Source of the DNA: Candidatus Levyibacteriota bacterium
GTDB lineage: Bacteria; Patescibacteriota; Microgenomatia; Levybacterales; GWA1-39-11
Direction of reading: 5' to 3'
DNA: 64,000 nt
Assembly: GCA_039738415.1 (NCBI GenBank)
Contig: JBCLLY010000002.1
Span: 9,792 to 73,791 of the forward strand
Shown here one piece after another: positions 4,345 through 64,000 of the stretch; position 1 is the stretch's first letter, and each line of letters begins with the position of its first letter. The notes beneath the pieces are model-generated. The model had not been told where the DNA came from, searched no databases, and saw only the letters and a list, made by a program, of their open reading frames with translations. The position numbers and the translations under genes were made by a program.

Positions 4345-4379
4345 AAATTTAGGTAATAGATAATAGTGAATAGAAAATA
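4345..4379. repeat. tandem heptamer array abutting the lexA start codon
   Basis: The + strand reads AAATTTA GGTAATA GATAATA GTGAATA GAAAATA. On the lexA strand this is TATTTTC TATTCAC TATTATC TATTACC TAAATTT followed directly by ATG. Confidence 0.6.
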
Positions 4380-4554
4380 TTATTCATAATATTTGAATAT
4401 TATTGATAAAAACTATACTAAAAATATACGAAAAAAAGGCGAACATTGTCAACGGGACAAAACGCAACAAACTATGTCAATTTTACTACAGTTAGTATCT
4501 TTTTATTCCTTTTATGAACTTTATAATTTCAATCTTTGCTATAATAGAAGACTT

Positions 4555-6534
4555 ATGAAATTTAGACTTGAGTCCAAATATAAACCTACCGGTGATCAGC
4601 CGGAGGCAATAGAAAATCTAACTAAAGGTTTTAAAAGTGGTAAAAAAAATCAGGTTCTTCTGGGAGTAACGGGTAGTGGAAAGACTTTTACAATTGCTAA
4701 TGTAATTCAAAATATCCAAAAGCCAACGCTGGTTATTTCACACAATAAAACTCTTGCAGCCCAACTCTATCAAGAACTTAGGGACTTTTTTCCTGAAAAT
4801 GCAGTTAGTTATTTTGTATCATATTACGATTTTTATCAGCCCGAAGCATATATGCCGACAACTGATACTTATATCGCAAAAGAAACTGAAGTAAACGACG
4901 AAATTGATAGATTAAGGCTTAGCGCAACCACGAATATTCTAACCCGTCCTGACACGATAGTCGTCGCCTCGGTTAGTGCTATTTACAATTTAGGTTCTCC
5001 TGACGAGTACGGAAAAGTCGTATTGGAAGTTGCCCAAGGAATGAAAATAGGCAGGCACTCAATTTTAGACCGCTTACTTGACTTAATGTATGCGCGAAAT
5101 GACTACGACTTTAAAAGGAGCACGTTTAGAGTTCGCGGAGATACTATTGAAGTACTTCCCGGTTATGAAAATCGCGGGGTGAGAATTACTCTAGCGGGAG
5201 ATTTTGTGGAAAAAATTGAACGTTTCAATCCCTTGAACGGGGAGCTTTTTGAAAGTATAAAAAACATAGTTATTTATCCGGCAAAACACTATATAACAGA
5301 CCCTACTAGCTATGATAGGGTGTTTGTTCAAATAAGAGCTGATATGGAAGAGCAAGTGAATTTTTTTCTTAAAAAAGGAAAACTGCTGGAGGCAAGGCGA
5401 TTAAAGCAAAGAACTGAATACGATTTAAAAATGATAAAAGAGTTGGGATATGTAAATGGGATTGAAAATTATTCCAGATATTTTGATGGAAGAGCGCCTG
5501 GCGACCCGCCATATTCTTTACTCGAATTTTTTAATAAAGTATCTGATGACTGGCTTCTTGTAATAGATGAATCTCATATGACAGTTCCACAAATTAGAGG
5601 GATGTATAACGGAGATCGTTCCCGTAAAGAAACTTTAGTAAATTATGGATTCCGTCTTCCGGCAGCATATGATAACAGACCGCTTAAATTTGAAGAATTT
5701 GAGCAAAAGATTAAAAAAACAATTTTTATGAGTGCTACACCCAGTGAGTGGGAGAAGGAAAAGTCAGGGAGGAAAAATATAGTTGAGCAATTGGTTCGTC
5801 CTACGGGAATTATAGATCCTGAGATAGAAATAAGAAAAACCGAAGGGCAAATATCGGATTTGATAGAAGAAATAAAAAAGACAGCTGAAAAAAAAGAGAG
5901 AGTTTTGGTTACAACACTTACAAAGAGGATGGCTGAGGATTTGACTACCTTTATGGAAGAGAGAGAAATTAAGGTAAATTATTTGCATAGTGGTGTAGAC
6001 ACTCTAGCACGCCAGGACGTGCTGGATGATTTGCGAAGCGGAGTCTATGATGTAGTCGTGGGAATAAACTTGCTCAGGGAAGGACTCGATTTACCCGAAG
6101 TATCACTTGTTGCAATACTTGATGCAGATAGAGAGGGGTTTTTGAGAAGCAAAACGTCACTCGTTCAAATCATGGGTCGTGCTGCACGCAGAGTTGGCGC
6201 TAGAGTTATACTTTATGCTGATAAAAATACAAGATCGATGAATGAAGCGATTGAAGAGGTAGATAGGCGTCGGCAATATCAAATGGAATACAATAAAAAA
6301 AACGGTATTACACCGGAAACAATTGAAAAAGCAATCCGCGCGAAGTTAATTGAGCTAAAGGAGAAAACAATTGAGGATTTAAAACCGCTTATGGATAGGG
6401 AAGTTTTACTGCCTGATGATAGGGAGAAATTAATCAAGCGCTTGCGCAGTGAAATGAAAGCCGCAGCAAAGGATTTGGATTTTGAAACCGCTGCGCAGCT
6501 GAGAGATAAAGTCCGCTATTTACAACAGCGCTAG
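4555..6534 (+). CDS. uvrB: excinuclease ABC subunit B
   Basis: From M55 of ORF 4393..6534 the protein reads MKFRLESKYKPTGDQPEAI...GVTGSGKTF, the canonical UvrB N-terminus. A C-terminal UVR motif is present. TGCTATAAT lies at 4537-4545. Confidence 0.95.
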   Translation: MKFRLESKYKPTGDQPEAIENLTKGFKSGKKNQVLLGVTGSGKTFTIANVIQNIQKPTLVISHNKTLAAQLYQELRDFFPENAVSYFVSYYDFYQPEAYMPTTDTYIAKETEVNDEIDRLRLSATTNILTRPDTIVVASVSAIYNLGSPDEYGKVVLEVAQGMKIGRHSILDRLLDLMYARNDYDFKRSTFRVRGDTIEVLPGYENRGVRITLAGDFVEKIERFNPLNGELFESIKNIVIYPAKHYITDPTSYDRVFVQIRADMEEQVNFFLKKGKLLEARRLKQRTEYDLKMIKELGYVNGIENYSRYFDGRAPGDPPYSLLEFFNKVSDDWLLVIDESHMTVPQIRGMYNGDRSRKETLVNYGFRLPAAYDNRPLKFEEFEQKIKKTIFMSATPSEWEKEKSGRKNIVEQLVRPTGIIDPEIEIRKTEGQISDLIEEIKKTAEKKERVLVTTLTKRMAEDLTTFMEEREIKVNYLHSGVDTLARQDVLDDLRSGVYDVVVGINLLREGLDLPEVSLVAILDADREGFLRSKTSLVQIMGRAARRVGARVILYADKNTRSMNEAIEEVDRRRQYQMEYNKKNGITPETIEKAIRAKLIELKEKTIEDLKPLMDREVLLPDDREKLIKRLRSEMKAAAKDLDFETAAQLRDKVRYLQQR

Positions 6535-18568: not shown

Positions 18569-18976
18569 ATGGTAAAAAACTCTACTTCAAACAAACCACT
18601 CTCAAAAGACGATTTGGATACAGCCCTTAAGGCATATGCAACTAAAGCAGATTTGAACAAAGCAGTTAAGGGCTCTGAAAGAATTTTAAGAGCTGAAATT
18701 CTAAAAGTTGAAGGAAAAGTAGAGAATGTTGAAGTTGTCCTGAAAAGACTTGAAGGAAAAGTAGAGAATGTTGAAGATGGTCTGAAAAGACTTGAAGGAA
18801 AAGTAGACAAAATGGATTCCACAATTGAAAAGATTTCAAATCAATTGGATGGTTTTGTTGGAAGAGTTGACGATTTAACCAACGATAACGAGATTGGCGC
18901 TGACCAAATTCATCGACTGCGTGAAGATGTTAAAGAACGCGGTAAAAGAATCGCAAAACTTGAATCCCCAAATTAA
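18569..18976 (+). CDS. coiled-coil protein with 14-aa (42-nt) tandem repeats
   Basis: Repeats read EGKVENVEVVLKRL / EGKVENVEDGLKRL / EGKVDKMD. TTGACA (18531-18536) and TGGTATAAT (18553-18561) sit 7 nt before the ATG, so the mRNA is apparently leaderless. Confidence 0.6.
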   Translation: MVKNSTSNKPLSKDDLDTALKAYATKADLNKAVKGSERILRAEILKVEGKVENVEVVLKRLEGKVENVEDGLKRLEGKVDKMDSTIEKISNQLDGFVGRVDDLTNDNEIGADQIHRLREDVKERGKRIAKLESPN

Positions 18977-19739: not shown

Positions 19740-20714
19740 ATGGATGAGAACGATCCTACGCTAACACAGGAAAGCACTCCGAATGCCACGTTGAATAACC
19801 TACCAGAAGAGAGGAAAACTTTTTTTAAAAAGAAAAAAGTAATGATAATTGCAGGAATCCTGCTGGCTCTTATTGTCGGGATTATTGCTTTTCTTCAATT
19901 GAGACAGAGTCCTGATACTGTTGCTAATCTCCCACCACCTGAACCTGAAAATGTGTTGCTCGCTACAGTAGGTGAGAAACAAATTTACTGGCGGGATGTT
20001 AACAATTTAGCCTTAGAGAATTATCTGGCGAGTGCCATTGATAACAACGTTCTGAAGTTGTATTTAAATATAGCAATTGAGCGAGCAATTCTTGATAAGG
20101 AGGCAGAGAGGCTTAAAATTAGTATAACTAGTGCTGAAATCGAATTGCGCAAGAAGTCAGCTGCAGCCAAGAAGACTGATTTACTCATTAAATACGACTT
20201 GCTAAAAGAGAAAGTGATGAAGGCTCAAATAAAAAATGTAGTCGCTTATACCGTTGGTTTTTGGATAGCCTCTTTTGATTACCCTCAATTACCCGAATAT
20301 ACCGTGCAAAGAGAGAAAGGTAAAATTGCACTTGCGGAAATCCAGCTTAAATTTATAGCGAATGAGAAAGCAGTTGACATCGCTAAGTACACGGCAGAAT
20401 CTTACCCAGAGCTAAGCGAGATTGTTGCGATAAATGGTCTAATTTATGTTAAAACAACAGATTTAAATCTATTGGAAAATCCCAGAACGTACACTCTTAA
20501 CCCCACAGATAAGGGTAAACCATATAATGATGATGAGGTGTTTGATGCTCTGTCGAAAATTAAAGCCGGGGAGGTTGTAAAAGTGGAGAGAAAAAATGGC
20601 TCCGGTGGAACTGTCATAAAGGCAGTATCAATAAATAACAGTGGATTTGCATCATATGAAGATTTTTTAACCGCACGTAAGAAAGAAATAGTTAAGATAA
20701 TAAGTAATTTATGA
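19740..20714 (+). CDS. membrane-anchored SurA/PpiD N-terminal-like chaperone-domain protein
   Basis: It has an N-terminal TM segment. VGEKQIYWRDVNNLALENYL...ILDKEAERLKISITSAEIE resembles the SurA N-terminal domain. No clear PPIase motif was seen. Confidence 0.4.
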   Translation: MDENDPTLTQESTPNATLNNLPEERKTFFKKKKVMIIAGILLALIVGIIAFLQLRQSPDTVANLPPPEPENVLLATVGEKQIYWRDVNNLALENYLASAIDNNVLKLYLNIAIERAILDKEAERLKISITSAEIELRKKSAAAKKTDLLIKYDLLKEKVMKAQIKNVVAYTVGFWIASFDYPQLPEYTVQREKGKIALAEIQLKFIANEKAVDIAKYTAESYPELSEIVAINGLIYVKTTDLNLLENPRTYTLNPTDKGKPYNDDEVFDALSKIKAGEVVKVERKNGSGGTVIKAVSINNSGFASYEDFLTARKKEIVKIISNL

Positions 20715-22243
20715 AAAGTGTTTTAATATTTGTATCATTCTTATTCACGGTCTTATCATTTCTAATTTTTCCAGGCGATGCGAATGCACAATGTGCAACT
20801 ATGCAGGGAACTATTGGAGGGTCTAATTTCCCTTCAGGGGGTAAAGTGGTAATAAAATGCGATGGGGACGATCCAGTCGGAGATTCAAATTGTGGTGGAA
20901 ACAGTGAGGCACTCGTACCAGGAGAAACGTATAATTTCCAGAATTGCAGTTGTCGTCTTGGAACTGGAAGATGTATGCAGGTGGTTTCAGTACCGACCGG
21001 ATGTACTTACAGTCTAACAGGTCAGATTTGTGGTACCAATGGTCAGACTAATTATCCTGATATAAGCGTTTCATGCCCTGCGCCTAGTACTCCATGTCCG
21101 AAGGGAAGAGGATATTGTGGCGATCCAAATGGCATTGGTGCCACGGATTGCACTTATGGAGCCGAGCCTGGTAGTTGGTTAAGTTCGCAGGGTTATACGG
21201 ATTGGTGTGCTGCTAATACAGGTGGTAGTACGAGTTATTGTTTCAATACTTGTAAACCTGCTCCAACTGCTACACCCACGCCTACGCCTACGCTTACACC
21301 CACAGCAACAGCCACCCCCACAAGTACACCCACATCATCACCCACCCCCACAAGTACTCCCGGGGCAACAGCCACTCCTACGAGGACACCTACGCCTACA
21401 AGTACGCCTGGTCCTACAAGTACGCCTGGTCCTACAAGCACGCCTAGACCTGTTTGTGGTGATCCATGTGCTATCAAAACTGAGTGTGATGGTGCAGCAT
21501 TAGGTTGTACAGAATGTCTTCTAAGTAGTGGGGGAGGGAAAACTTGCCAACCACTGGCTACGGGTACGCCTGTGCCGACAGCTACACCTCCTCCCGCACC
21601 TACGCCTACGCCTGACTTTAAAGAAGCTATGTGTAAGTGTGACCTAATGAATGTAGGGCAAATAACGATGGGGGAGCCTATTAAAATTGAGGCTTTCGCA
21701 AAAGTAGTAGGCGATGACGTCAAAAAAGCATATGTTAGAAATATGAATTTTAAGATTTACGAAGGCAACCCTTCTGGCGGAAGAAGGGTGCCTTTTATAG
21801 ATGAAGCCACACGGCCAGTAGATGTAGTAGGTAATTCGTCGGCAACCTTGGTGCGCTATAGAGCAGAGTGGACAGTTAGCCCTAATCAGATAAAAATAGG
21901 GGAAGAATATAGAATAGTCGCAACTCCGGATTGTGCTCCTAGAGTTGCGGCAATTCAACGTCAAAATCAGAGCGTAGTGCTTGCCGCAAGAGACGAAAAT
22001 ATTGGATTTTTCGAACAAATCGCAAACTTCTTTGCGGGACTTTTTGGGCAGGGTAGTGAGCCGGAAGATCAGGGTGTTCAGACAGCAGAGGAAGATCAGG
22101 GCCCACTTTCATTTATAACAAATTTCTTCAGACCTCAAACGGAAGTTAGGCGTCAGATTCAGATGCAAACATTTATTCCATCTCAAATGGAGAAAGAGGC
22201 TTGTAATATTGTGAAATTCAAATTTGACTTCATAGCTCAGTAA
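20711..22243 (+). CDS. secreted Cys-rich protein with a long Pro/Thr-rich linker
   Basis: It has a signal peptide, many Cys residues, and a PTATPTPTPTLTPTATATPTSTPTSSPTPTSTPG... low-complexity block (about 21250-21450 and 21555-21615). Confidence 0.6.
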   Translation: MKSVLIFVSFLFTVLSFLIFPGDANAQCATMQGTIGGSNFPSGGKVVIKCDGDDPVGDSNCGGNSEALVPGETYNFQNCSCRLGTGRCMQVVSVPTGCTYSLTGQICGTNGQTNYPDISVSCPAPSTPCPKGRGYCGDPNGIGATDCTYGAEPGSWLSSQGYTDWCAANTGGSTSYCFNTCKPAPTATPTPTPTLTPTATATPTSTPTSSPTPTSTPGATATPTRTPTPTSTPGPTSTPGPTSTPRPVCGDPCAIKTECDGAALGCTECLLSSGGGKTCQPLATGTPVPTATPPPAPTPTPDFKEAMCKCDLMNVGQITMGEPIKIEAFAKVVGDDVKKAYVRNMNFKIYEGNPSGGRRVPFIDEATRPVDVVGNSSATLVRYRAEWTVSPNQIKIGEEYRIVATPDCAPRVAAIQRQNQSVVLAARDENIGFFEQIANFFAGLFGQGSEPEDQGVQTAEEDQGPLSFITNFFRPQTEVRRQIQMQTFIPSQMEKEACNIVKFKFDFIAQ

Positions 22244-25824: not shown

Positions 25825-26508
25825 ATGATTATAGATAGGTTTGATGCCAAACCAGTTCAGTTACTTCTAGCACGGCATAGAGAGCATCAAGAGTCATATT
25901 TGCAAGATTTTCGGGGAATCCCTTTGATTATATTTCCGGATGTATTTAACCCTGCATACACAAAAGTGTCAAGTTATTTAGCTGATAACTTAGTTATTCA
26001 ACCCGGGTCAACAGTATTAGAAATGTTCAGCGGAAGTGGAGCATTATCCTTTATAGCTGCTGGGAAAGCAAGAGAAGTAACAGGGGTAGATATCTCACCG
26101 AATTCTGTTGACTGCGCAAAGTTAAATGCGGCTAAACTAGGTTTATCTGATAGAACTAAATTTAGAGTAGCTAATTTATGGGAGGGTGTTAGAGAAGGTG
26201 AGAAGTTTGACGTGATAATTGCTAATCCTCCATTACTACCGGCAATACCAGAAAGTTGGCTGGAAATGACCATTGCCGATAGTCCAGACATGCTAACTAC
26301 AATTAAATTTATCCAGGGCTGTTCCTCTCATCTAACTGATTCGGGTCGTGTTTTTATGGCTTTTTCCAATGCTTGTGGGGTATATTTTGCAAATCCTCTT
26401 GGATTAATTAACAAAACAGCAGATGAATCAGGGCTAATAATGCAAGTTAAATCCGAATGGGATGTTGGATATGAAATATATAGAATACTTGAATTTACAA
26501 AAAAATAA
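25825..26508 (+). CDS. class I SAM-dependent methyltransferase (HemK/RsmC-like small-domain type)
   Basis: VLEMFSGSGALS is SAM motif I, and DVIIANPPLLP is an NPPY-like motif. Confidence 0.7.
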   Translation: MIIDRFDAKPVQLLLARHREHQESYLQDFRGIPLIIFPDVFNPAYTKVSSYLADNLVIQPGSTVLEMFSGSGALSFIAAGKAREVTGVDISPNSVDCAKLNAAKLGLSDRTKFRVANLWEGVREGEKFDVIIANPPLLPAIPESWLEMTIADSPDMLTTIKFIQGCSSHLTDSGRVFMAFSNACGVYFANPLGLINKTADESGLIMQVKSEWDVGYEIYRILEFTKK

Positions 26509-47860: not shown

Positions 47861-47998
47861 CTCCTCTCACTTTTCTATAAACACTATTATATTAACAAAA
47901 ATTGAAAAATATGAAAGAGGTATTACTATTTATGTAAAACTACAGCAATAAGTAAGTTACGTCAAAAGAGAAACGGAGAATACTGTATAATATAGGAT

Positions 47999-56900: not shown

Positions 56901-57003
56901 TCCCTGTGGAAATCATGCCCTCACGCATTGTATAATACCACTAAAGATAACTTTGAAGTTTGATTTTCATAATTCTTGCTTCATAATTCATGATTCTTTT
57001 TTT

Positions 57004-57086: not shown

Positions 57087-57288
57087 CAAATAGTCTTACC
57101 CATAAAAAAGCACATATATGTCAGCTGAGTCTACAATGTCATTAATAAATCTGGAAACCGAACGCGGAGCCAAATATTTTAAAGTGGAATAGTCAATGCT
57201 GCTCAAGTTGAGCCCAATAAGTGAAATAAAAAGTTGAAATATTTGCTGACAAATTTAAACTACAGGAAATTTCAGTTATAATAGCCAA

Positions 57289-58161: not shown

Positions 58162-58192
58162 AAAAATAGCCTCAATATGCTATAATCGCAAC

Positions 58193-59023: not shown

Positions 59024-59257
59024 ATGATTGAAAGAAGTAATTTACCAAACTCTGAAGGAGAAATTGCAGTAAGTATTGATAGTGATACTATCGGAGAAGA
59101 AGAGTTTAGACAAAAACCAAAAGTTTCATATGAGACCAGATTGGAAGAGGCTGGTGGCGATCCAAGAGTTCTAGCAGCAAGAGCTGCTGAAATCGAACGG
59201 GCGAGTTTCGACATGAATGCCCAACGGGAGTATCGAGTTGGAGACGTCACAGAATAA
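59024..59257 (+). CDS. hypothetical small acidic protein (77 aa)
   Basis: A strong SD (AAAGGAGGTG, 59008-59017) sits 6 nt before the ATG. No motif was recognised. Confidence 0.5.
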   Translation: MIERSNLPNSEGEIAVSIDSDTIGEEEFRQKPKVSYETRLEEAGGDPRVLAARAAEIERASFDMNAQREYRVGDVTE

Positions 59258-59302
59258 TATTGAATTGTTACATATTCTTTATTCTGTTAAAATTACCTCG
59301 TT

Positions 59303-59483
59303 GCGCGCATAGCTCAGTGGTAGAGTACTTCATTGACACCTGCCCGCTATGTACTTGGATCTATAGCTCAGTTGGTTAGAGCGTTGCATTGACATTGCAA
59401 AGGTCAGTGGTTCGAGTCCACTTAGATCCACAAGCAAGGCAGGCGGGTCGAAGGGGTCCATGGTTCAAACCCATGTGCGCGCA
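59303..59483 (+). tRNA. tRNA-Val(GAC) interrupted after the anticodon loop by a 109-nt insert (outer gene)
   Basis: The 5' half 59303-59339 and 3' half 59449-59483 share a 7/7 acceptor stem (GCGCGCA/TGCGCGC), an anticodon loop TTGACAC and a T arm CATGG TTCAAAC CCATG. Joined, they give 72 nt. Confidence 0.65.
59357..59430 (+). tRNA. tRNA-Val(GAC) (inner gene, complete)
   Basis: Acceptor GGATCTA/TAGATCC, anticodon arm TTGCA TTGACAT TGCAA, T arm AGTGG TTCGAGT CCACT. Confidence 0.85.
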
Positions 59484-59547
59484 CTACTCCAAGGTCATCC
59501 CGCTAAGGGGGATCAGGCGAGCATTTTTAATTTTTAATTATTCTTCA

Positions 59548-59582
59548 TACTTTATACTTACTACTTTATACTTTATACTTAT
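59548..59582 (+). repeat. five tandem heptamers (TACTTTA-like) abutting a start codon
   Basis: TACTTTA TACTTAC TACTTTA TACTTTA TACTTAT, then TCT and ATG (59586). Unit junctions create repeated TATACT hexamers. Confidence 0.7.
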
Positions 59583-59585
59583 TCT

Positions 59586-60161
59586 ATGACTCGAGACGGG
59601 GCATACCAAACTCTTACTGTTTATACACAGTCGCAAAATCTAATAAGACATAATTTGGCAGTAGAAGCTGCAATGAGGACTCTTGCGAAATATTTGTCAA
59701 CTGTAAAAAATCAATATTTTGATACTGAGCAGTGGGGAATAACAGGACTTTTGCACGATGCGGATTACGAGCTAACCCGTAAAACTCCGGAGCAACACAC
59801 TTTGTATCTGGAGGAAAAACTCGGCGAACAAATCCCACCCGAAATTATGTACGCCATAAAAGCCCATAATTTTGCTTATACGAAAGTTGAACCGATATCT
59901 CTTATGGATTGGTCATTATATACTTGTGACGAGACAACGGGTTTTATCGTCGCCTGTGCTTTAGTCCTACCCGATAAAAAACTAAAAAGCGTAACGGTCG
60001 AGTTTGTTATAAAGAAAATGGAGGATTTATCATTTGCAAGCAATGTTAACCGCGATCAAATAAAATTATGCGAAAAAAGCTTGAATATTCCTCTTCCTGA
60101 GTTTACCAAAATTGTACTTACTTCTATGCAAAGTATTGATAGTGAACTCGGACTCGCGTAA
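59586..60161 (+). CDS. HD-domain metal-dependent phosphohydrolase
   Basis: GLLHDADYE and KAHN motifs. Confidence 0.7.
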   Translation: MTRDGAYQTLTVYTQSQNLIRHNLAVEAAMRTLAKYLSTVKNQYFDTEQWGITGLLHDADYELTRKTPEQHTLYLEEKLGEQIPPEIMYAIKAHNFAYTKVEPISLMDWSLYTCDETTGFIVACALVLPDKKLKSVTVEFVIKKMEDLSFASNVNRDQIKLCEKSLNIPLPEFTKIVLTSMQSIDSELGLA

Positions 60162-60170
60162 AATAAAGTT

Positions 60171-60431
60171 ATGGACAAAAAGAAATCTGCAAATGAAGGG
60201 GCTCTTGATGTAATTGGGACAGATTATAGAAGTGCCTACAAACCGCTCAAAAAGATTATTTTTAATAATTTTATAGGTGGAATAGCATGGACACTAGGTG
60301 TTGCGACCGGTTCAACGATAATTATTGCTCTTTTGTCTTACTTTCTAGGTCAAATTAATCTTGTGCCTTTTGTTGGAAATTTTGTACTGAAAGTGGTGGA
60401 ATTTGTGCAGCAAAATAACCCCAACTTGTGA
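60171..60431 (+). CDS. hypothetical small membrane protein
   Basis: 86 aa with two hydrophobic helices. Confidence 0.4.
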   Translation: MDKKKSANEGALDVIGTDYRSAYKPLKKIIFNNFIGGIAWTLGVATGSTIIIALLSYFLGQINLVPFVGNFVLKVVEFVQQNNPNL

Positions 60432-60448
60432 TATAATACCAACCTCAA

Positions 60449-61693
60449 ATGGATTCAAATAATTTAAAAGATCACAAACAAATAGGACTAGAACAGGAGT
60501 TGTTCTTTACTGATGAGATTGCCCCCGGTGCCCCTTTCTGGCTTCCAAATGGAATGATTATTTTTAAAGAGCTTGAAAAGTATATCCGCGAGATAACTCT
60601 TCAAAACGGTTATCTGGAAACTTCAACCCCAATAATGGTTAAAAGCGATTTGTTCAAGCAGTCTGGGCATTGGAGCAAATTTGGCGAACATAATATGTAC
60701 AATTTGGAACTAAAAGATGATGAAAACGATGAACATCCGCAAAGCTATACGCTAAAACCCATGAATTGTCCGGAATCAACAGTATTGTACCGTTTCCGCC
60801 CAAGAAGCTATAAAGAACTACCTCTAAGGTTTTCAGAAATAGGCAGACTTCACAGACGCGAAAAGTCGGGCGAAGTAAATGGACTTTTGAGAGCTAGGCA
60901 AATTACTATGGATGATGCGCATATATATGCCACTGAGGAGCAAATTTTTGATGAAATAGACCGAATTCTTAAGATGATGATGGAATTTTATGACAAACTA
61001 GGATTCGAATATGATTTTAGACTCGCAACACGCCCCCAAGTCTATGCGGGTAATGAAGAGAATTGGAAAAGAGCGGAAAAAGATTTAGAAAAAGCGCTTA
61101 CGAAAAACAATCTTAAATTCAGCATAAAAGATCAAGATGGCGCCTTTTATGGTCCTAAAATCGACGTTCATATCAAAGATTCACTCGGACGCGAATGGCA
61201 ACTGGCAACAGTCCAACTGGACTTTCACCAACCCGAGGCATTTAACCTAACATATATTGATAGTGACGGCAGGCAAAAGCGCCCCGTTATGATACACCGC
61301 GCGATAATTGGTTCATTTGAAAGATTCATCGGAATTCTTACCGAACACTTCCAAGGAGCATTTCCTGTATTCTTATCACCAATTCAGGTAGTAATAGTGC
61401 CAATTAGCGAAAAACAAAACGACTACGCTAAAAAAATTGAGACTGAGCTCAAAAAAGCTAATATACGGGTAAAACTAGACGATAGAAATGAAACAATGCA
61501 GGGTAAAATTAGAGATGCGACTTTACAAAAAGCACCTGTAATCTGTATAATAGGCGGTCAGGAAGAAAAAGAGGCTGATGAGAAGAAAGAATTAATAGTT
61601 ACGGCAAGGCACAGAAATGGAGAACAAGAGAAGGAAGTTAAGCTTAAAACTCTAATTGAAAAAATAATAAAAGACATTGAGAAAAAAAAGTAA
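60449..61693 (+). CDS. thrS: threonyl-tRNA synthetase, catalytic plus anticodon-binding domains only
   Basis: It begins at HKQIGLEQELFFTDEIAPGAPFWLPNG, the start of the class II core. Length is 414 aa, with no TGS or editing domains. Confidence 0.85.
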   Translation: MDSNNLKDHKQIGLEQELFFTDEIAPGAPFWLPNGMIIFKELEKYIREITLQNGYLETSTPIMVKSDLFKQSGHWSKFGEHNMYNLELKDDENDEHPQSYTLKPMNCPESTVLYRFRPRSYKELPLRFSEIGRLHRREKSGEVNGLLRARQITMDDAHIYATEEQIFDEIDRILKMMMEFYDKLGFEYDFRLATRPQVYAGNEENWKRAEKDLEKALTKNNLKFSIKDQDGAFYGPKIDVHIKDSLGREWQLATVQLDFHQPEAFNLTYIDSDGRQKRPVMIHRAIIGSFERFIGILTEHFQGAFPVFLSPIQVVIVPISEKQNDYAKKIETELKKANIRVKLDDRNETMQGKIRDATLQKAPVICIIGGQEEKEADEKKELIVTARHRNGEQEKEVKLKTLIEKIIKDIEKKK

Positions 61694-62210
61694 CACACAG
61701 AACAAACTGCCCTTCTACAAAAGGAATCAACAGATTAGGGCAAATGAGGTAAGGCTTATCGACAACGAAGATAAGCAGATTGGAATAATGAGCTTAAGTG
61801 AGGCATTCTCAATGGCACGCGAGAAAGAACTTGATTTAGTTGAAATCGCACCGCAGGCAAAACCACCTGTTGTAAAAATTATAGACTTCAGCAAGTTTCT
61901 TTACTATCTAAACAAGAAAAAGAAAGAAGAGAAAAAGAATACAAAAACGTCGCAGACAAAGCAGATTAGATTTGGACCATTTATCGGAGAACACGATTTA
62001 GAAATAAAGCTAAAGAAGGCAAGGGCGTTTTTAGAAGACGGAGATAAGGTAAAATTTGCAGTAAGATTTGCAGGACGTCAGATTACTAAAAAAGAGCTGG
62101 GCGGACAAGTACTTAAAAAAGTACTTTTAAACCTTGACGATATAGCAAAACAGGAAAAAGAGATGAGAATGGAAGGAAGACAATTAGTCGTGATATTAAC
62201 AAAAAAATGA
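61677..62210 (+). CDS. infC: translation initiation factor IF-3
   Basis: IRANEVRLIDNEDKQIGIMSLSEAFSMAREKELDLVEIAPQAKPPVVKIIDF. The start codon is uncertain; IF-3 genes often use atypical starts. Confidence 0.85.
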   Translation: MRKKSNTQNKLPFYKRNQQIRANEVRLIDNEDKQIGIMSLSEAFSMAREKELDLVEIAPQAKPPVVKIIDFSKFLYYLNKKKKEEKKNTKTSQTKQIRFGPFIGEHDLEIKLKKARAFLEDGDKVKFAVRFAGRQITKKELGGQVLKKVLLNLDDIAKQEKEMRMEGRQLVVILTKK

Positions 62211-62416
62211 ATATGTCAAAAAATAAGATAAAAATTAAAAAATCAGTTAGAAACCGTTTTAGGGTAACTAAAAACGGAAAGGTGCTTCGTGGAAGCCAAA
62301 ATCTTTCACATTTACGTTCAAAACACTCAAAAAGAACTTTGAGACGCATGAAGGAGCCAAAGCAACTTGAAGGCAAATTCGCAAAAAAAATAAAACAAAT
62401 GCTCGCAATGGCATAG
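62207..62416 (+). CDS. rpmI: 50S ribosomal protein L35
   Basis: KIKIKKSVRNRFRVTKNGKVLRGSQNLSHLRSKHSKR. It has an ATGA overlap with the infC stop. Confidence 0.9.
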   Translation: MNMSKNKIKIKKSVRNRFRVTKNGKVLRGSQNLSHLRSKHSKRTLRRMKEPKQLEGKFAKKIKQMLAMA

Positions 62417-62493
62417 CTAGAAACTAGATGCTAGAAGCTAGATACTAGAAACTAGAAACTGGATACTGAATACTGAATACTGAATACTGAATA
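62417..62493 (+). repeat. eleven tandem heptamers filling the rpmI-rplT spacer
   Basis: CTAGAAA CTAGATG CTAGAAG CTAGATA CTAGAAA CTAGAAA CTGGATA CTGAATA x4, then T and ATG (62495). Confidence 0.85.
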
Positions 62494-62494
62494 T

Positions 62495-62845
62495 ATGACA
62501 AGAATAAAAAGAGGGACAATATCCCGACAAAAACACAAAAAAATACTGGTTCTTGCAAAAGGCTATAGAGGAACACGAAGCAAACTTATAAAAACTGCTC
62601 ATGAGGCGGTTTTACATGCTGACCAATATTCTTTTCATGGCAGAAAAAGAAAAAAACGCGATATTAGACGCCTTTGGATTACCAGAATTAACGGCGCACT
62701 TGACGAAAAGGGGCACTCATACAGTAAATTTATAAACGTTTTAAAGAAGAAGAATATATTGCTTGATAGAAAAATTATGGCAAATATTATTGTTGACGAT
62801 CCGAAAACATTTGAAACAATTATAGACAAAGCCTTCGGAAAATAA
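62495..62845 (+). CDS. rplT: 50S ribosomal protein L20
   Basis: MTRIKRGTISRQKHKKILVLAKGYRGTRSKL. Confidence 0.95.
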   Translation: MTRIKRGTISRQKHKKILVLAKGYRGTRSKLIKTAHEAVLHADQYSFHGRKRKKRDIRRLWITRINGALDEKGHSYSKFINVLKKKNILLDRKIMANIIVDDPKTFETIIDKAFGK

Positions 62846-62891
62846 CCTCCTTATCCTTTTTTTTCACTCATTCACGTGTATAATATAAAAC

Positions 62892-63950
62892 GTGGAAGAA
62901 GAATTACTGAATATAAAAAATAACGCGATGGCGCTTCTCATGGAGGCAGAAAGTCTCCCTGAGGTAAATCAGATTTATATTCAATTTCTAGGAAAAAACG
63001 GAAATTTGACCAAAGAATTGAAAAATCTTAAAAAAGTTCCTGAGCAAAAGCGTCCCGAAGTGGGAAAGCTTGCAAACGAAATAAAACTTACTCTGGAAAA
63101 TATCATTAACGATAAAAAAAATGACTTAAAACAAGGCAAGAACGATGAAAGGGCAAAAAAAATGGATATAACCCGTCCCGGTGTAAAACAGGAATTAGGC
63201 TCACTGCATTTGGTAACTCAAGCAATAAGAGAAATTTCACAAATTTTTGAAAGTATAGGATTTGAGCGTGTCCGTTATCCCGAAGTCGAATGGGACTGGT
63301 ATGCATTTGAGGCTCTAAATTTTCCCGAAAATCACCCGGCAAGAGACGCGTGGGAAACGTTTTTTATCGATGTAAAAGCAGATGCAAAAATGGGACCAAT
63401 GATACTTACTCCACACACCTCATCAGGTCAAGTGAGGGAGATGTTAAGTAGTGCAAAATCCCGCCCAGCGGGACATAAAACATCAATCCGGATGCTTAAC
63501 CTTGCAAAATGTTACAGAAGGCAAAGTGACGTTTCACATACTGAGATGTTCCACCAGTTTGAGGGATTAGTGGTTGATGAGGATATCACAATCGGACACT
63601 TAAAGGGAGTTCTGGAATACTTTGTGAAATCCTACTTTGGGCAAAACAGAACTTCAAGAATTAGACCTTATCAATTTCAATTTACCGAGCCGTCCTTTGA
63701 GGTTGATATAAGCTGTGGAATTTGCAATGGCAAAGGATGCAAGTTGTGCAAGGAGGGCTGGGTAGAGCTAGGAGGCGCAGGAATGGTTCACCCAAATGTT
63801 TTACGTGCAGGAAAAATCGACCCTGGAAAATACACCGGATTTGCTTTTGGCTGGGGAGTAGAACGCGTTCTTATGATGAAAGAGGGGCTGAGTTTGCCTG
63901 ATTTAAGGCTCATTTATTCAAACAGAATAGAGTTTTTAAAACAGTTTTAG
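62892..63950 (+). CDS. pheS: phenylalanyl-tRNA synthetase alpha subunit
   Basis: FPENHPARDAWETFFI, HTSSGQVR and GFAFGWGVERV motifs. It has a GTG start 7 nt after TATAAT (62879-62884). Confidence 0.9.
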   Translation: MEEELLNIKNNAMALLMEAESLPEVNQIYIQFLGKNGNLTKELKNLKKVPEQKRPEVGKLANEIKLTLENIINDKKNDLKQGKNDERAKKMDITRPGVKQELGSLHLVTQAIREISQIFESIGFERVRYPEVEWDWYAFEALNFPENHPARDAWETFFIDVKADAKMGPMILTPHTSSGQVREMLSSAKSRPAGHKTSIRMLNLAKCYRRQSDVSHTEMFHQFEGLVVDEDITIGHLKGVLEYFVKSYFGQNRTSRIRPYQFQFTEPSFEVDISCGICNGKGCKLCKEGWVELGGAGMVHPNVLRAGKIDPGKYTGFAFGWGVERVLMMKEGLSLPDLRLIYSNRIEFLKQF

Positions 63951-63972
63951 TTTTATGAAAAATAATAATTTT

Positions 63973-64000
63973 TATCATTTACCATATACCATTTATCATT
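63973..64000 (+). repeat. tandem heptamers at the window edge
   Basis: TATCATT TACCATA TACCATT TATCATT. The array is truncated by the window end. Confidence 0.55.

Follow-up and report, generated by a model that had tools for sequence, protein, structure and literature searches.

Introduction

Arrays of the heptamer TAACTGA have been described in marine Beggiatoaceae, some Cyanobacteria and Bacteroidetes, with the largest class ending 1 nt before a start codon and mostly lacking a ribosome binding site (RBS) (MacGregor, 2015; PMC4679880). A genome has many of them, including sets within ribosomal protein (r-protein) operons and ahead of pheS; close relatives lack them, and no function is known (PMC4679880). 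Heptameric simple sequence repeats (SSRs) are moreover over-represented in bacterial intergenic DNA, for which polymerase slippage has been proposed, and examples include the cyanobacterial short tandemly repeated repetitive (STRR) heptanucleotides, GGGAATC in Xanthomonas and GGGGAYT in Nostoc, some of them in intra-operon gaps such as pecE-pecF (Rehm et al., 2015; PMC4692102). In the literature we found neither a description of such arrays in the Patescibacteria, or Candidate Phyla Radiation (CPR), nor an experimental follow-up of the TAACTGA arrays. Here we analyse an array of eleven tandem heptamers that fills the spacer between rpmI (r-protein L35) and rplT (r-protein L20) in a 64,000-nt stretch of contig JBCLLY010000002.1 (hereafter the window), which comes from an uncultivated member of the Patescibacteria whose nearest named L20 homologues are annotated as Levybacteria or Patescibacteria.

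The position of this array calls for some background on the operon. The gene rplT is normally expressed via translational coupling to rpmI over a very short gap. The L20 operator of E. coli, a pseudoknot plus a stem, lies upstream of rpmI, and the L20 leader of Bacillus lies upstream of infC. The array in the window resembles the TAACTGA arrays in that it consists of forward tandem heptamers about 1 nt before a start codon, has no RBS, sits in an r-protein operon, and is patchy among close relatives.

Anatomy of the rpmI-rplT spacer

The operon region on the + strand (60449-63950) encodes ThrS, IF3, L35, L20 and PheS according to Pfam, by which the last four are confirmed. The features of the junction are the following.

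62213..62416, + strand: rpmI (L35), Pfam PF01632, E 1e-11; a 67-aa form is called in other assemblies
62414-62416, + strand: L35 stop codon TAG, read from the sequence
62417-62493, + strand: heptamer array of eleven tandem units, between the L35 stop and the L20 ATG
62417..62458, + strand: 5' half of the array, six CTAGRWR heptamers, where unit order and sequence are most variable among strains
62428..62448, + strand: mini open reading frame (ORF) of 6 codons, ATG CTA GAA GCT AGA TAC TAG, with the sole start codon within the spacer
62459..62465, + strand: transitional unit CTGGATA, read from the sequence
62466..62493, + strand: 3' half of the array, four perfect CTGAATA units (96% matches in Tandem Repeats Finder, TRF); site of a single-unit indel relative to strain locus L001, which has three units
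62495..62845, + strand: rplT (L20), Pfam PF00453, E 3e-39; profile position 1 corresponds to residue 3
Array flanks: rpmI 3' end …GCAATGGCATAG; rplT 5' end ATGACAAGAATA

Read 5' to 3', the units are CTAGAAA, CTAGATG, CTAGAAG, CTAGATA, CTAGAAA, CTAGAAA and CTGGATA, followed by CTGAATA four times, and a single T (62494) separates the end of the array from the rplT ATG (62495). Since the L20 profile begins at residue 3 and the codons upstream in frame with the ATG reach a TGA within 7 codons, the ATG at 62495 is the true start. For rpmI, an earlier ATG at 62207 is an alternative start and overlaps with the stop codon of infC. The 25 nt preceding the rplT ATG contain no Shine-Dalgarno-like (SD-like) GGAG, GAGG, AGGA or AAGG, and stop triplets number 3, 3 and 4 across the three frames of the spacer. 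The first-pass annotation, made from the sequence alone, had described eleven tandem heptamers filling the spacer to within 1 nt of the L20 ATG, the lack of an SD sequence, and TAG/TGA stops in all three frames; the sequence agrees with the array description in every detail, and the other two observations hold as well. The stops in all frames are an ordinary outcome of an AT-rich repeat of period 7, and the mini-ORF is probably without meaning, the composition of the array at that place differing between strains.

It is clear that the array is more than chance. TRF reports a period of 7 with 6.3 and 5.1 copies at 83-96% matches, and no other tandem array with a period of 4 to 15 passes a strict self-match threshold in the window. 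None of 20 first-order Markov simulations of the whole stretch produced a period-7 array of at least 3.5 copies, compared with 5 in the real sequence (6 TRF rows). We also considered whether avoidance of CTAG makes the six CTAGs of the array remarkable and dropped the idea, as the depletion of this tetramer in the window is mild (123 observed, 146 expected).

Variation among strains

The behavior of the array over short evolutionary times can be seen by comparing the window with three public contigs that encode an identical L20 (two NCBI assemblies and one Logan assembly). The four strains are 98.5-100% identical, and the spacers of the other three measure 71, 71 and 99 nt, corresponding to 10, 10 and 14 units relative to the 11 of the window. 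Array length thus changes always in whole 7-nt units, and the order of units differs between the two 10-unit arrays. The closest pair is the window and L001, with 0 substitutions over 4506 aligned nt and a sole difference of one CTGAATA unit, located in the purest run of the array. Across the four strains, substituted columns are concentrated in the array, with 14 of 78 as opposed to 51 of 4376 in the flanks (a 15-fold excess, Fisher p = 2e-12), and 11 of the 14 fall in the 5' half (62417..62458). What stays constant in all four strains is the 5' edge (TAG CTAGA…) and the final two units with the T (…CTGAATA CTGAATA T ATG).

Short units arranged head to tail, copy numbers that differ by whole units, and variability above that of the flanks are the marks of a variable number tandem repeat (VNTR), and all of them are found at this locus. 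Judged from these sequence comparisons, the array is a hypermutable heptanucleotide SSR or VNTR that bears the signature of slipped-strand mispairing, with slippage as the inferred mechanism. The suggestion of a slippage-prone tract in the first-pass annotation is thus borne out by strains with identical L20 that differ in whole-unit steps. A practical consequence is that the tract constitutes a ready-made strain marker for an uncultivated lineage.

Tandem repeats are a classic source of assembly error, and the window and L001 are otherwise identical, so one may ask whether the array or its length differences were made by short-read assemblers. At 71-99 nt the array is below typical read length, such that reads should span it; four independent NCBI and Logan assemblies carry it with identical flanks and different internal unit orders; and other species hold related arrays. 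We therefore regard an assembly artefact as hardly credible.

The same junction in relatives

Relatives were collected by exact-protein look-ups of L20 homologues with 78-87% identity, which returned the orthologous thrS-infC-rpmI-rplT-pheS locus from many samples. A scan of species-representative genomes with L20 gave distant relatives only (at most 63% identity), a metagenome scan with L20 added few loci, and a look-up with L35 returned no further strains. The rpmI-rplT spacers of the relatives are as follows.

2 nt: L019 group, L031, L032
5 nt: L010-L017
6 nt: L044, L045, L047
15 nt, two units, C TAAAGAC TAAATTT: L048-L050
40 nt, five units, CTAGA CACTAAT AACCAAT AACGAAT AACTAAT AACAATT: L018
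40 nt, five units, CTAAA TACTAGT AACTAAA AACTAAT AACTAAA TAAATAT: L041-L043
96 nt, period 7 with unrelated units, GTNNAAA five times and then TTTAATT-like four times: L009

The junction thus presents a graded series of 0, 2, 5 and 10-14 units at a single orthologous position. The spacer begins with the edge CTA[GA]A.. in the window, L018, L041 and L048 alike, which suggests that these arrays grew from a common seed. Among distant CPR loci, the spacer of L004 begins with AAAACNN five times, and that of L008 is about 75 nt long and repeat-rich while its close relative L007 has about 8 nt. (Additional period-7 TRF matches in L004 fall within coding sequence rich in lysine and glutamate, so they do not compare with these arrays.)

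In a neighbour-joining tree built from five concatenated proteins, array-bearing and array-free lineages are interleaved: L010 (5 nt) groups as the sister of L018 (40 nt) with 87% bootstrap, and the window species as that of L047 (6 nt) with 75%. Since the array-bearing lineages are not monophyletic, arrays have been repeatedly expanded and lost. The five-unit array is identical in L041 and L042 at 0.7% flank divergence, and this stability of a shorter, impure array fits a slippage rate that rises with array length and purity. The first-pass annotation would have given up its proposed roles for the array in favor of a neutral microsatellite had there been no polymorphism and had relatives possessed unrelated, non-repetitive spacers; the tract is polymorphic, and several relatives have related heptamer arrays at the junction.

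RNA structure and expression of L20

In well-studied bacteria the operon infC-rpmI-rplT is controlled by L20 through RNA structure, and the first-pass annotation had proposed that the array replaces such a structure. This does not hold. The known operators lie upstream of rpmI or infC, the 2-6 nt gaps of relatives are coupling junctions, and no RNA resembling an L20 leader is found in 59200-64000: Rfam searches of the whole window at the gathering threshold, and of 59200-64000 at E<=1, returned tRNAs only. The fold of 62400-62530 is not significant relative to shuffled sequences (z = -1.6). In the predicted RNA no pairing involves the CTGAATA half, the AUG or the 18 nt that follow, and in the minimum free energy structure CTAG:CTAG pairing in the 5' half yields just weak 4-bp ladders. 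An L20 operator or leader was likewise rejected as the identity of the array itself, which is downstream of rpmI, unstructured, and without a match to RF00558. Given the short gaps of relatives, the array is an expansion inside a coupling junction; it is neither an L20 operator nor its replacement, and as an insertion it abolishes the tight coupling of rpmI and rplT.

The explanation that we favour, and hold to be probable if well short of certain, is that a hypermutable heptamer SSR expanded in the coupling junction, leaving rplT to SD-independent initiation, with a copy number that is near-neutral. The ancestral state would have been a very short translational-coupling junction, as in the 2-15 nt spacers of relatives. 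Slipped-strand mispairing would then have made the array grow, shrink and reshuffle by whole 7-nt units. The array would be transcribed with the operon and would break the rpmI-rplT coupling, placing the L20 AUG in an A/U-rich, unpaired and SD-free context from which L20 would be made by SD-independent initiation, as is presumably the case for most genes of this genome. Units would be gained and lost upstream with little or no effect on fitness, since only the last two units and the T, which remain fixed, reach the start site and determine the surroundings of the AUG.

A variable tract in the 5' region of rplT, polymorphic among near-identical strains, could also act as a tuning device in which L20 output, and with it the L20:L35 ratio, is determined by unit number in a graded, heritable and reversible manner, similar to (ATCTTTC)n of hmw1A in H. 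influenzae. A heptamer SSR in the 5' untranslated region is indeed known to set expression inversely to its length (PMC12721329). We nevertheless consider such tuning quite unlikely here. The long hairpin of hmw-type repeats, with a G-rich arm and cut by RNase III, is not predicted for the array, whose z of -1.6 comes with an unpaired 3' half; the gene-proximal units are invariant; and relatives do well with anything from 0 to 13 units. In addition, L20 is an essential, stoichiometric r-protein and not a surface or restriction-modification gene of the kind typical of contingency loci.

Other heptamer arrays in the window

The rplT array is one of a handful of discrete heptamer arrays that abut downstream gene starts in this genome. 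The other four in the window are listed below.

4350..4379, - strand: TTATCTA-like units (in the direction of lexA) in the gap between the divergent lexA and uvrB genes, with its end 5 nt from the lexA ATG (4344)
56966..56996, + strand: TTCATAA-like units, 4.4 copies, ending 7 nt before tRNA-Leu(TAG)
59538..59585, + strand: TTNATAC/TTATACT, six copies, reaching the ATG (59586) of a 191-aa ORF and giving TATACT (59574-59579) + 6 nt + ATG
63971..64000, + strand: TTTATCA TTTACCA TATACCA TTTATCA TTAATTT in the pheS-pheT gap, continuing 5 nt beyond the window to the pheT ATG

All 5 period-7 arrays in the 64 kb are intergenic, they occupy about 7% of the gaps, and their units differ from one array to another. 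Each of the five sits at the gene-proximal end of its gap. Under a uniform model the joint chance of this placement is about 1e-4 when degenerate last units are counted as array, and by our own arithmetic up to 4e-3 when they are excluded. We also considered a pervasive cryptic heptamer periodicity and rejected it, for the lag-7 autocorrelation in intergenic DNA vanishes without the five array-bearing gaps (z = 0.2); the arrays are thus discrete events and not a trait of all intergenic DNA. Comparison with relatives gives a similar picture at other sites of the same region. The pheS-pheT gap measures 55 nt in the window species as opposed to 1-2 nt in relatives, heptamer runs also abut the pheT start in L048 and L041, and TTNATAC-type heptamers are found upstream of the 191-aa ORF in every lineage.

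Two of these arrays have further elements beside them. In the lexA-uvrB gap the perfectly palindromic AATATTAT-TC-ATAATATT and, after it, a third copy of AATATTAT occupy 4376-4403 and form a candidate LexA operator. Ahead of the 191-aa ORF, a hairpin at 59491-59530 (ATCCC-GCTAAGG-GGGAT, then T-runs) follows the tRNA cluster and may be a terminator or processing signal in front of the heptamer-array promoter region of that gene; its counterpart in L018, upstream of 171, is ATCCCGATG-TCC-CATCGGGAT.

The set of arrays bears on the possibility that the heptamers are a binding-site array, that is, RNA or DNA bound by a protein (S1, a Csp- or CsrA-like protein, or L20 itself) which regulates rplT or recruits ribosomes to it, a role that has been proposed for TAACTGA arrays. 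The anatomy of the element, with forward heptamers that end 1 nt before the start, no RBS and an r-protein operon, is that of the TAACTGA arrays (PMC4679880), and the units AACTAAT and CTAATAA of relatives match TAACTGA at 6 of 7 positions in the best cyclic register (chance 0.018, before correction for the eleven units tested). The repeat RNA is also predicted to be single-stranded, and A/U-rich RNA of this type is preferred by S1. On the other hand, the five arrays of one genome have differing units (CTAGAAA, CTGAATA, TTATACT, TTTATCA, TTCATAA, TTATCTA), which is difficult to reconcile with one sequence-specific factor, and translation plays no part at one array, which lies in front of a tRNA gene. 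The window unit CTGAATA matches TAACTGA at just 5 of 7 positions (chance 0.16). The repeat neither mimics the structured L20 site nor matches Rfam, and sister lineages are wholly without an array. Taken together, these observations make a binding array very unlikely. Exact TAACTGA repeats were sought in the window as well, where that heptamer occurs as singletons only, a further point against such an array.

Leaderless genes and a candidate rplT promoter

The route by which L20 is initiated can be placed in the context of the genome as a whole, which is predominantly leaderless. Of 60 genes, 26 carry a TATAAT match of at least 5/6 (including A2 and T6) 4-9 nt ahead of the start codon, most commonly at a spacing of 6-7 nt and often preceded by TGn; examples are the boxes at 62879-62884 (pheS), 57276-57281, 58180-58185 and 47986-47991. 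SD motifs precede few genes of the window, e.g., those at 25825, 47860 (- strand) and 25051 (- strand). At pheS the arrangement TATAAT + 7 nt + GTG is fully conserved in all relatives, and upstream of the 191-aa ORF [T/A]ATACT + 6-7 nt + start is kept in all ten lineages examined while the surroundings drift. The rplT array offers a comparable element.

62483..62488, + strand: AATACT, a -10-like hexamer and candidate leaderless promoter box, exactly 6 nt (GAATAT) before the rplT ATG

The 3' end of the array, …C TGAATAC TGAATAT ATG, sets AATACT + 6 nt + ATG, the same geometry as at the start of the 191-aa ORF. It is thus conceivable that AATACT serves as a -10 box with transcription starting at the A of the ATG (62495), and that L20 is made mainly from a leaderless mRNA, as an addition to, or a replacement for, the expression step of the mechanism that we favour. 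Heptamer expansion would in that case have turned a coupled cistron into its own transcription unit, with only the last unit in register and the upstream copy number free to vary.

Several lines of evidence speak for such a promoter. The AATACT + 6 nt context is that of the 191-aa ORF, which has AATACT in L018, L019, L047 and L048 and TATACT in the window, L011, L041 and L044; that context is itself part of runs of TTNATAC heptamers, and TGAATAC shares 6 of 7 positions with TTAATAC. The background of [T/A]ATACT at this exact spacing is 0.19% (AT-rich positions). Strong -10 boxes near starts and the conserved pheS box show the same kind of signal elsewhere in the genome, and the pheS-pheT array gives TATCAT (63994-63999) + 6 nt + pheT ATG. 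A sigma-70 scan flags both that array and the one at 59538, units in 4 of the 5 arrays generate a 5/6 -10 hexamer (chance 0.13 each), and the lexA promoter must lie in the divergent gap that is taken up by the lexA array.

The rplT array is, however, the weakest of the five in this respect, with a 4/6 hexamer (chance 0.39 for a random unit; about 14% background under this looser criterion), and its AATACT is not flagged by the sigma-70 consensus scan, the -35-like match being poor (8/12, below the scan threshold). A convincing -35 element was sought and rejected: the only one at hand, TGGATA (4/6), lies 17 nt upstream of AATACT in the window strain alone; in L001, one unit shorter, it falls out of register. 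No -10-like hexamer stands 4-9 nt before the start in the rplT arrays of L018 and L041 or in the two-unit spacer of L048, so rplT can be expressed without one, and the motif in the window was noticed post hoc. On balance a leaderless internal promoter of rplT seems plausible from the sequence but is not established, and we lean somewhat against it; it is safer to speak of SD-independent initiation on an open A/U-rich leader.

A broader and more speculative proposal, which we think rather unlikely, is that heptamer slippage amounts to promoter birth in a leaderless genome. The arrays would then be iterated -10 modules (a 6-nt box plus 1), and their expansion against a start codon would free an operon-internal, coupled gene such as rplT, or pheT next door, as a leaderless unit; with only the last unit in register, copy number would be invisible to selection and the tract hypervariable. 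If the arrays do carry leaderless promoters, they would provide a simple mutational route to operon fragmentation.

Several considerations weigh against near-neutral SSR expansion followed by SD-independent initiation, the explanation that we favour. Four strains were compared, and the window and L001 may sample one population, such that their one-unit difference could be heterogeneity within it, caught by separate assemblies, although this would still be slippage. Co-transcription of the array, the initiation route of L20 and the neutrality of copy number rest on inference. Finally, the placement of arrays at gene starts, together with the -10-like content of 4 of the 5, suggests something beyond neutral junk.

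Neighbouring genes

Upstream of the operon, the window holds a tRNA within a tRNA (59301-59490, + strand), in which tRNA-Val(GAC) at 59357-59431 interrupts a second tRNA-Val(GAC)-like gene in its anticodon loop. The 5' half of the outer gene spans 59301-59337 and its 3' half extends to about 59487, and ARAGORN calls it only after in-silico removal of the insert. In relatives (first ~90 nt), L041 carries an intact outer type and the near-identical L042 has the inner type at that site. Two alternative tRNA-Val alleles therefore exist, and the window species has one inserted in the other.

Operon junctions are also insertion hot spots in relatives, with the following cases.

L041-L043, about 4473-4841: 122-aa ORF with 23S_rRNA_IVP/bAvd domains, between pheS and pheT
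L019, 4450-4761: 103-aa ORF at the pheS-pheT junction
L044, 3408-3842: NUDIX gene between rplT and pheS
L013, 354-445: 92-nt insertion with inverted repeats after the 191-aa ORF

Within the operon, ThrS (60449-61693) is short, its 414 aa comprising the catalytic core and the anticodon-binding domain only, with no N-terminal domains. The 3' end of thrS overlaps the longest infC frame (61677-62210) by 17 nt, and the start of infC is uncertain (TTG at 61677; 140- or 177-aa forms are called in other assemblies). Elsewhere in the window, repeats occur in frame within coding sequence: a 42-nt unit in 2.4 copies with 94% matches at 18708-18807 (ORF 18569-18976), and Pro/Thr-rich repeats of 12, 18 and 30 nt at 21270-21445 (ORF 20711-22243).

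Comparison with known systems

A fast-evolving, SD-less repeat can thus occupy even the junction of two essential and normally coupled r-protein genes in a reduced CPR genome, and it is instructive to set this element against those already described. The autoregulatory RNAs of L20 (the rpmI pseudoknot of E. coli and RF00558 of Firmicutes) belong to the same operon, infC-rpmI-rplT. They are structured mimics of the 23S rRNA site positioned upstream of rpmI or infC, whereas the array lies between rpmI and rplT and is unstructured.

The (ATCTTTC)n tracts of hmw1A and hmw2A in H. influenzae share with the rplT array a 7-nt unit, more than 10 copies, a position between upstream signals and the start codon, presumable transcription, and variable copy number. 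They differ in folding, together with a G-rich arm, into a long hairpin that RNase III processes, and in serving adhesin genes (PMC12721329); the rplT array has no such predicted structure and precedes the gene of an essential r-protein. The TTTTGAT heptads of ctxAB in V. cholerae are likewise A/T-rich and iterated in a promoter region in a strain-variable number, but their place is upstream of the core promoter, they recruit regulators of transcription, and their copy number correlates with promoter activity (bioRxiv 10.1101/2021.05.14.444153), while the rplT array has no known binder and reaches the start codon. As for the intergenic heptameric SSRs, the preference for period 7 over neighbouring periods, the intergenic location, and the variability of length and sequence among close relatives are all common to them and to the arrays of the window; those SSRs are G-rich and quadruplex-capable, whereas the arrays here are A/T-rich, unstructured, and set against gene starts.

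The closest counterpart remains the TAACTGA arrays. The units of the rplT array match TAACTGA at only 5/7 (CTGAATA) and 4/7 (CTAGAAA) positions, several unrelated units occur in the same genome, and the array is longer, with 10-14 units relative to mostly 2-6. It is also found in the Patescibacteria, in a largely leaderless genome, and with strain-level copy-number polymorphism shown, in all of which it is unlike the TAACTGA arrays. We conclude that the rplT array is the same kind of element, and we do not claim membership of the same family. The class of start-abutting heptamers, so far seen in Beggiatoaceae, Cyanobacteria and Bacteroidetes, is thereby extended to the Patescibacteria, and what is new for this class is direct strain-level evidence of hypermutability together with a graded evolutionary series at one junction.

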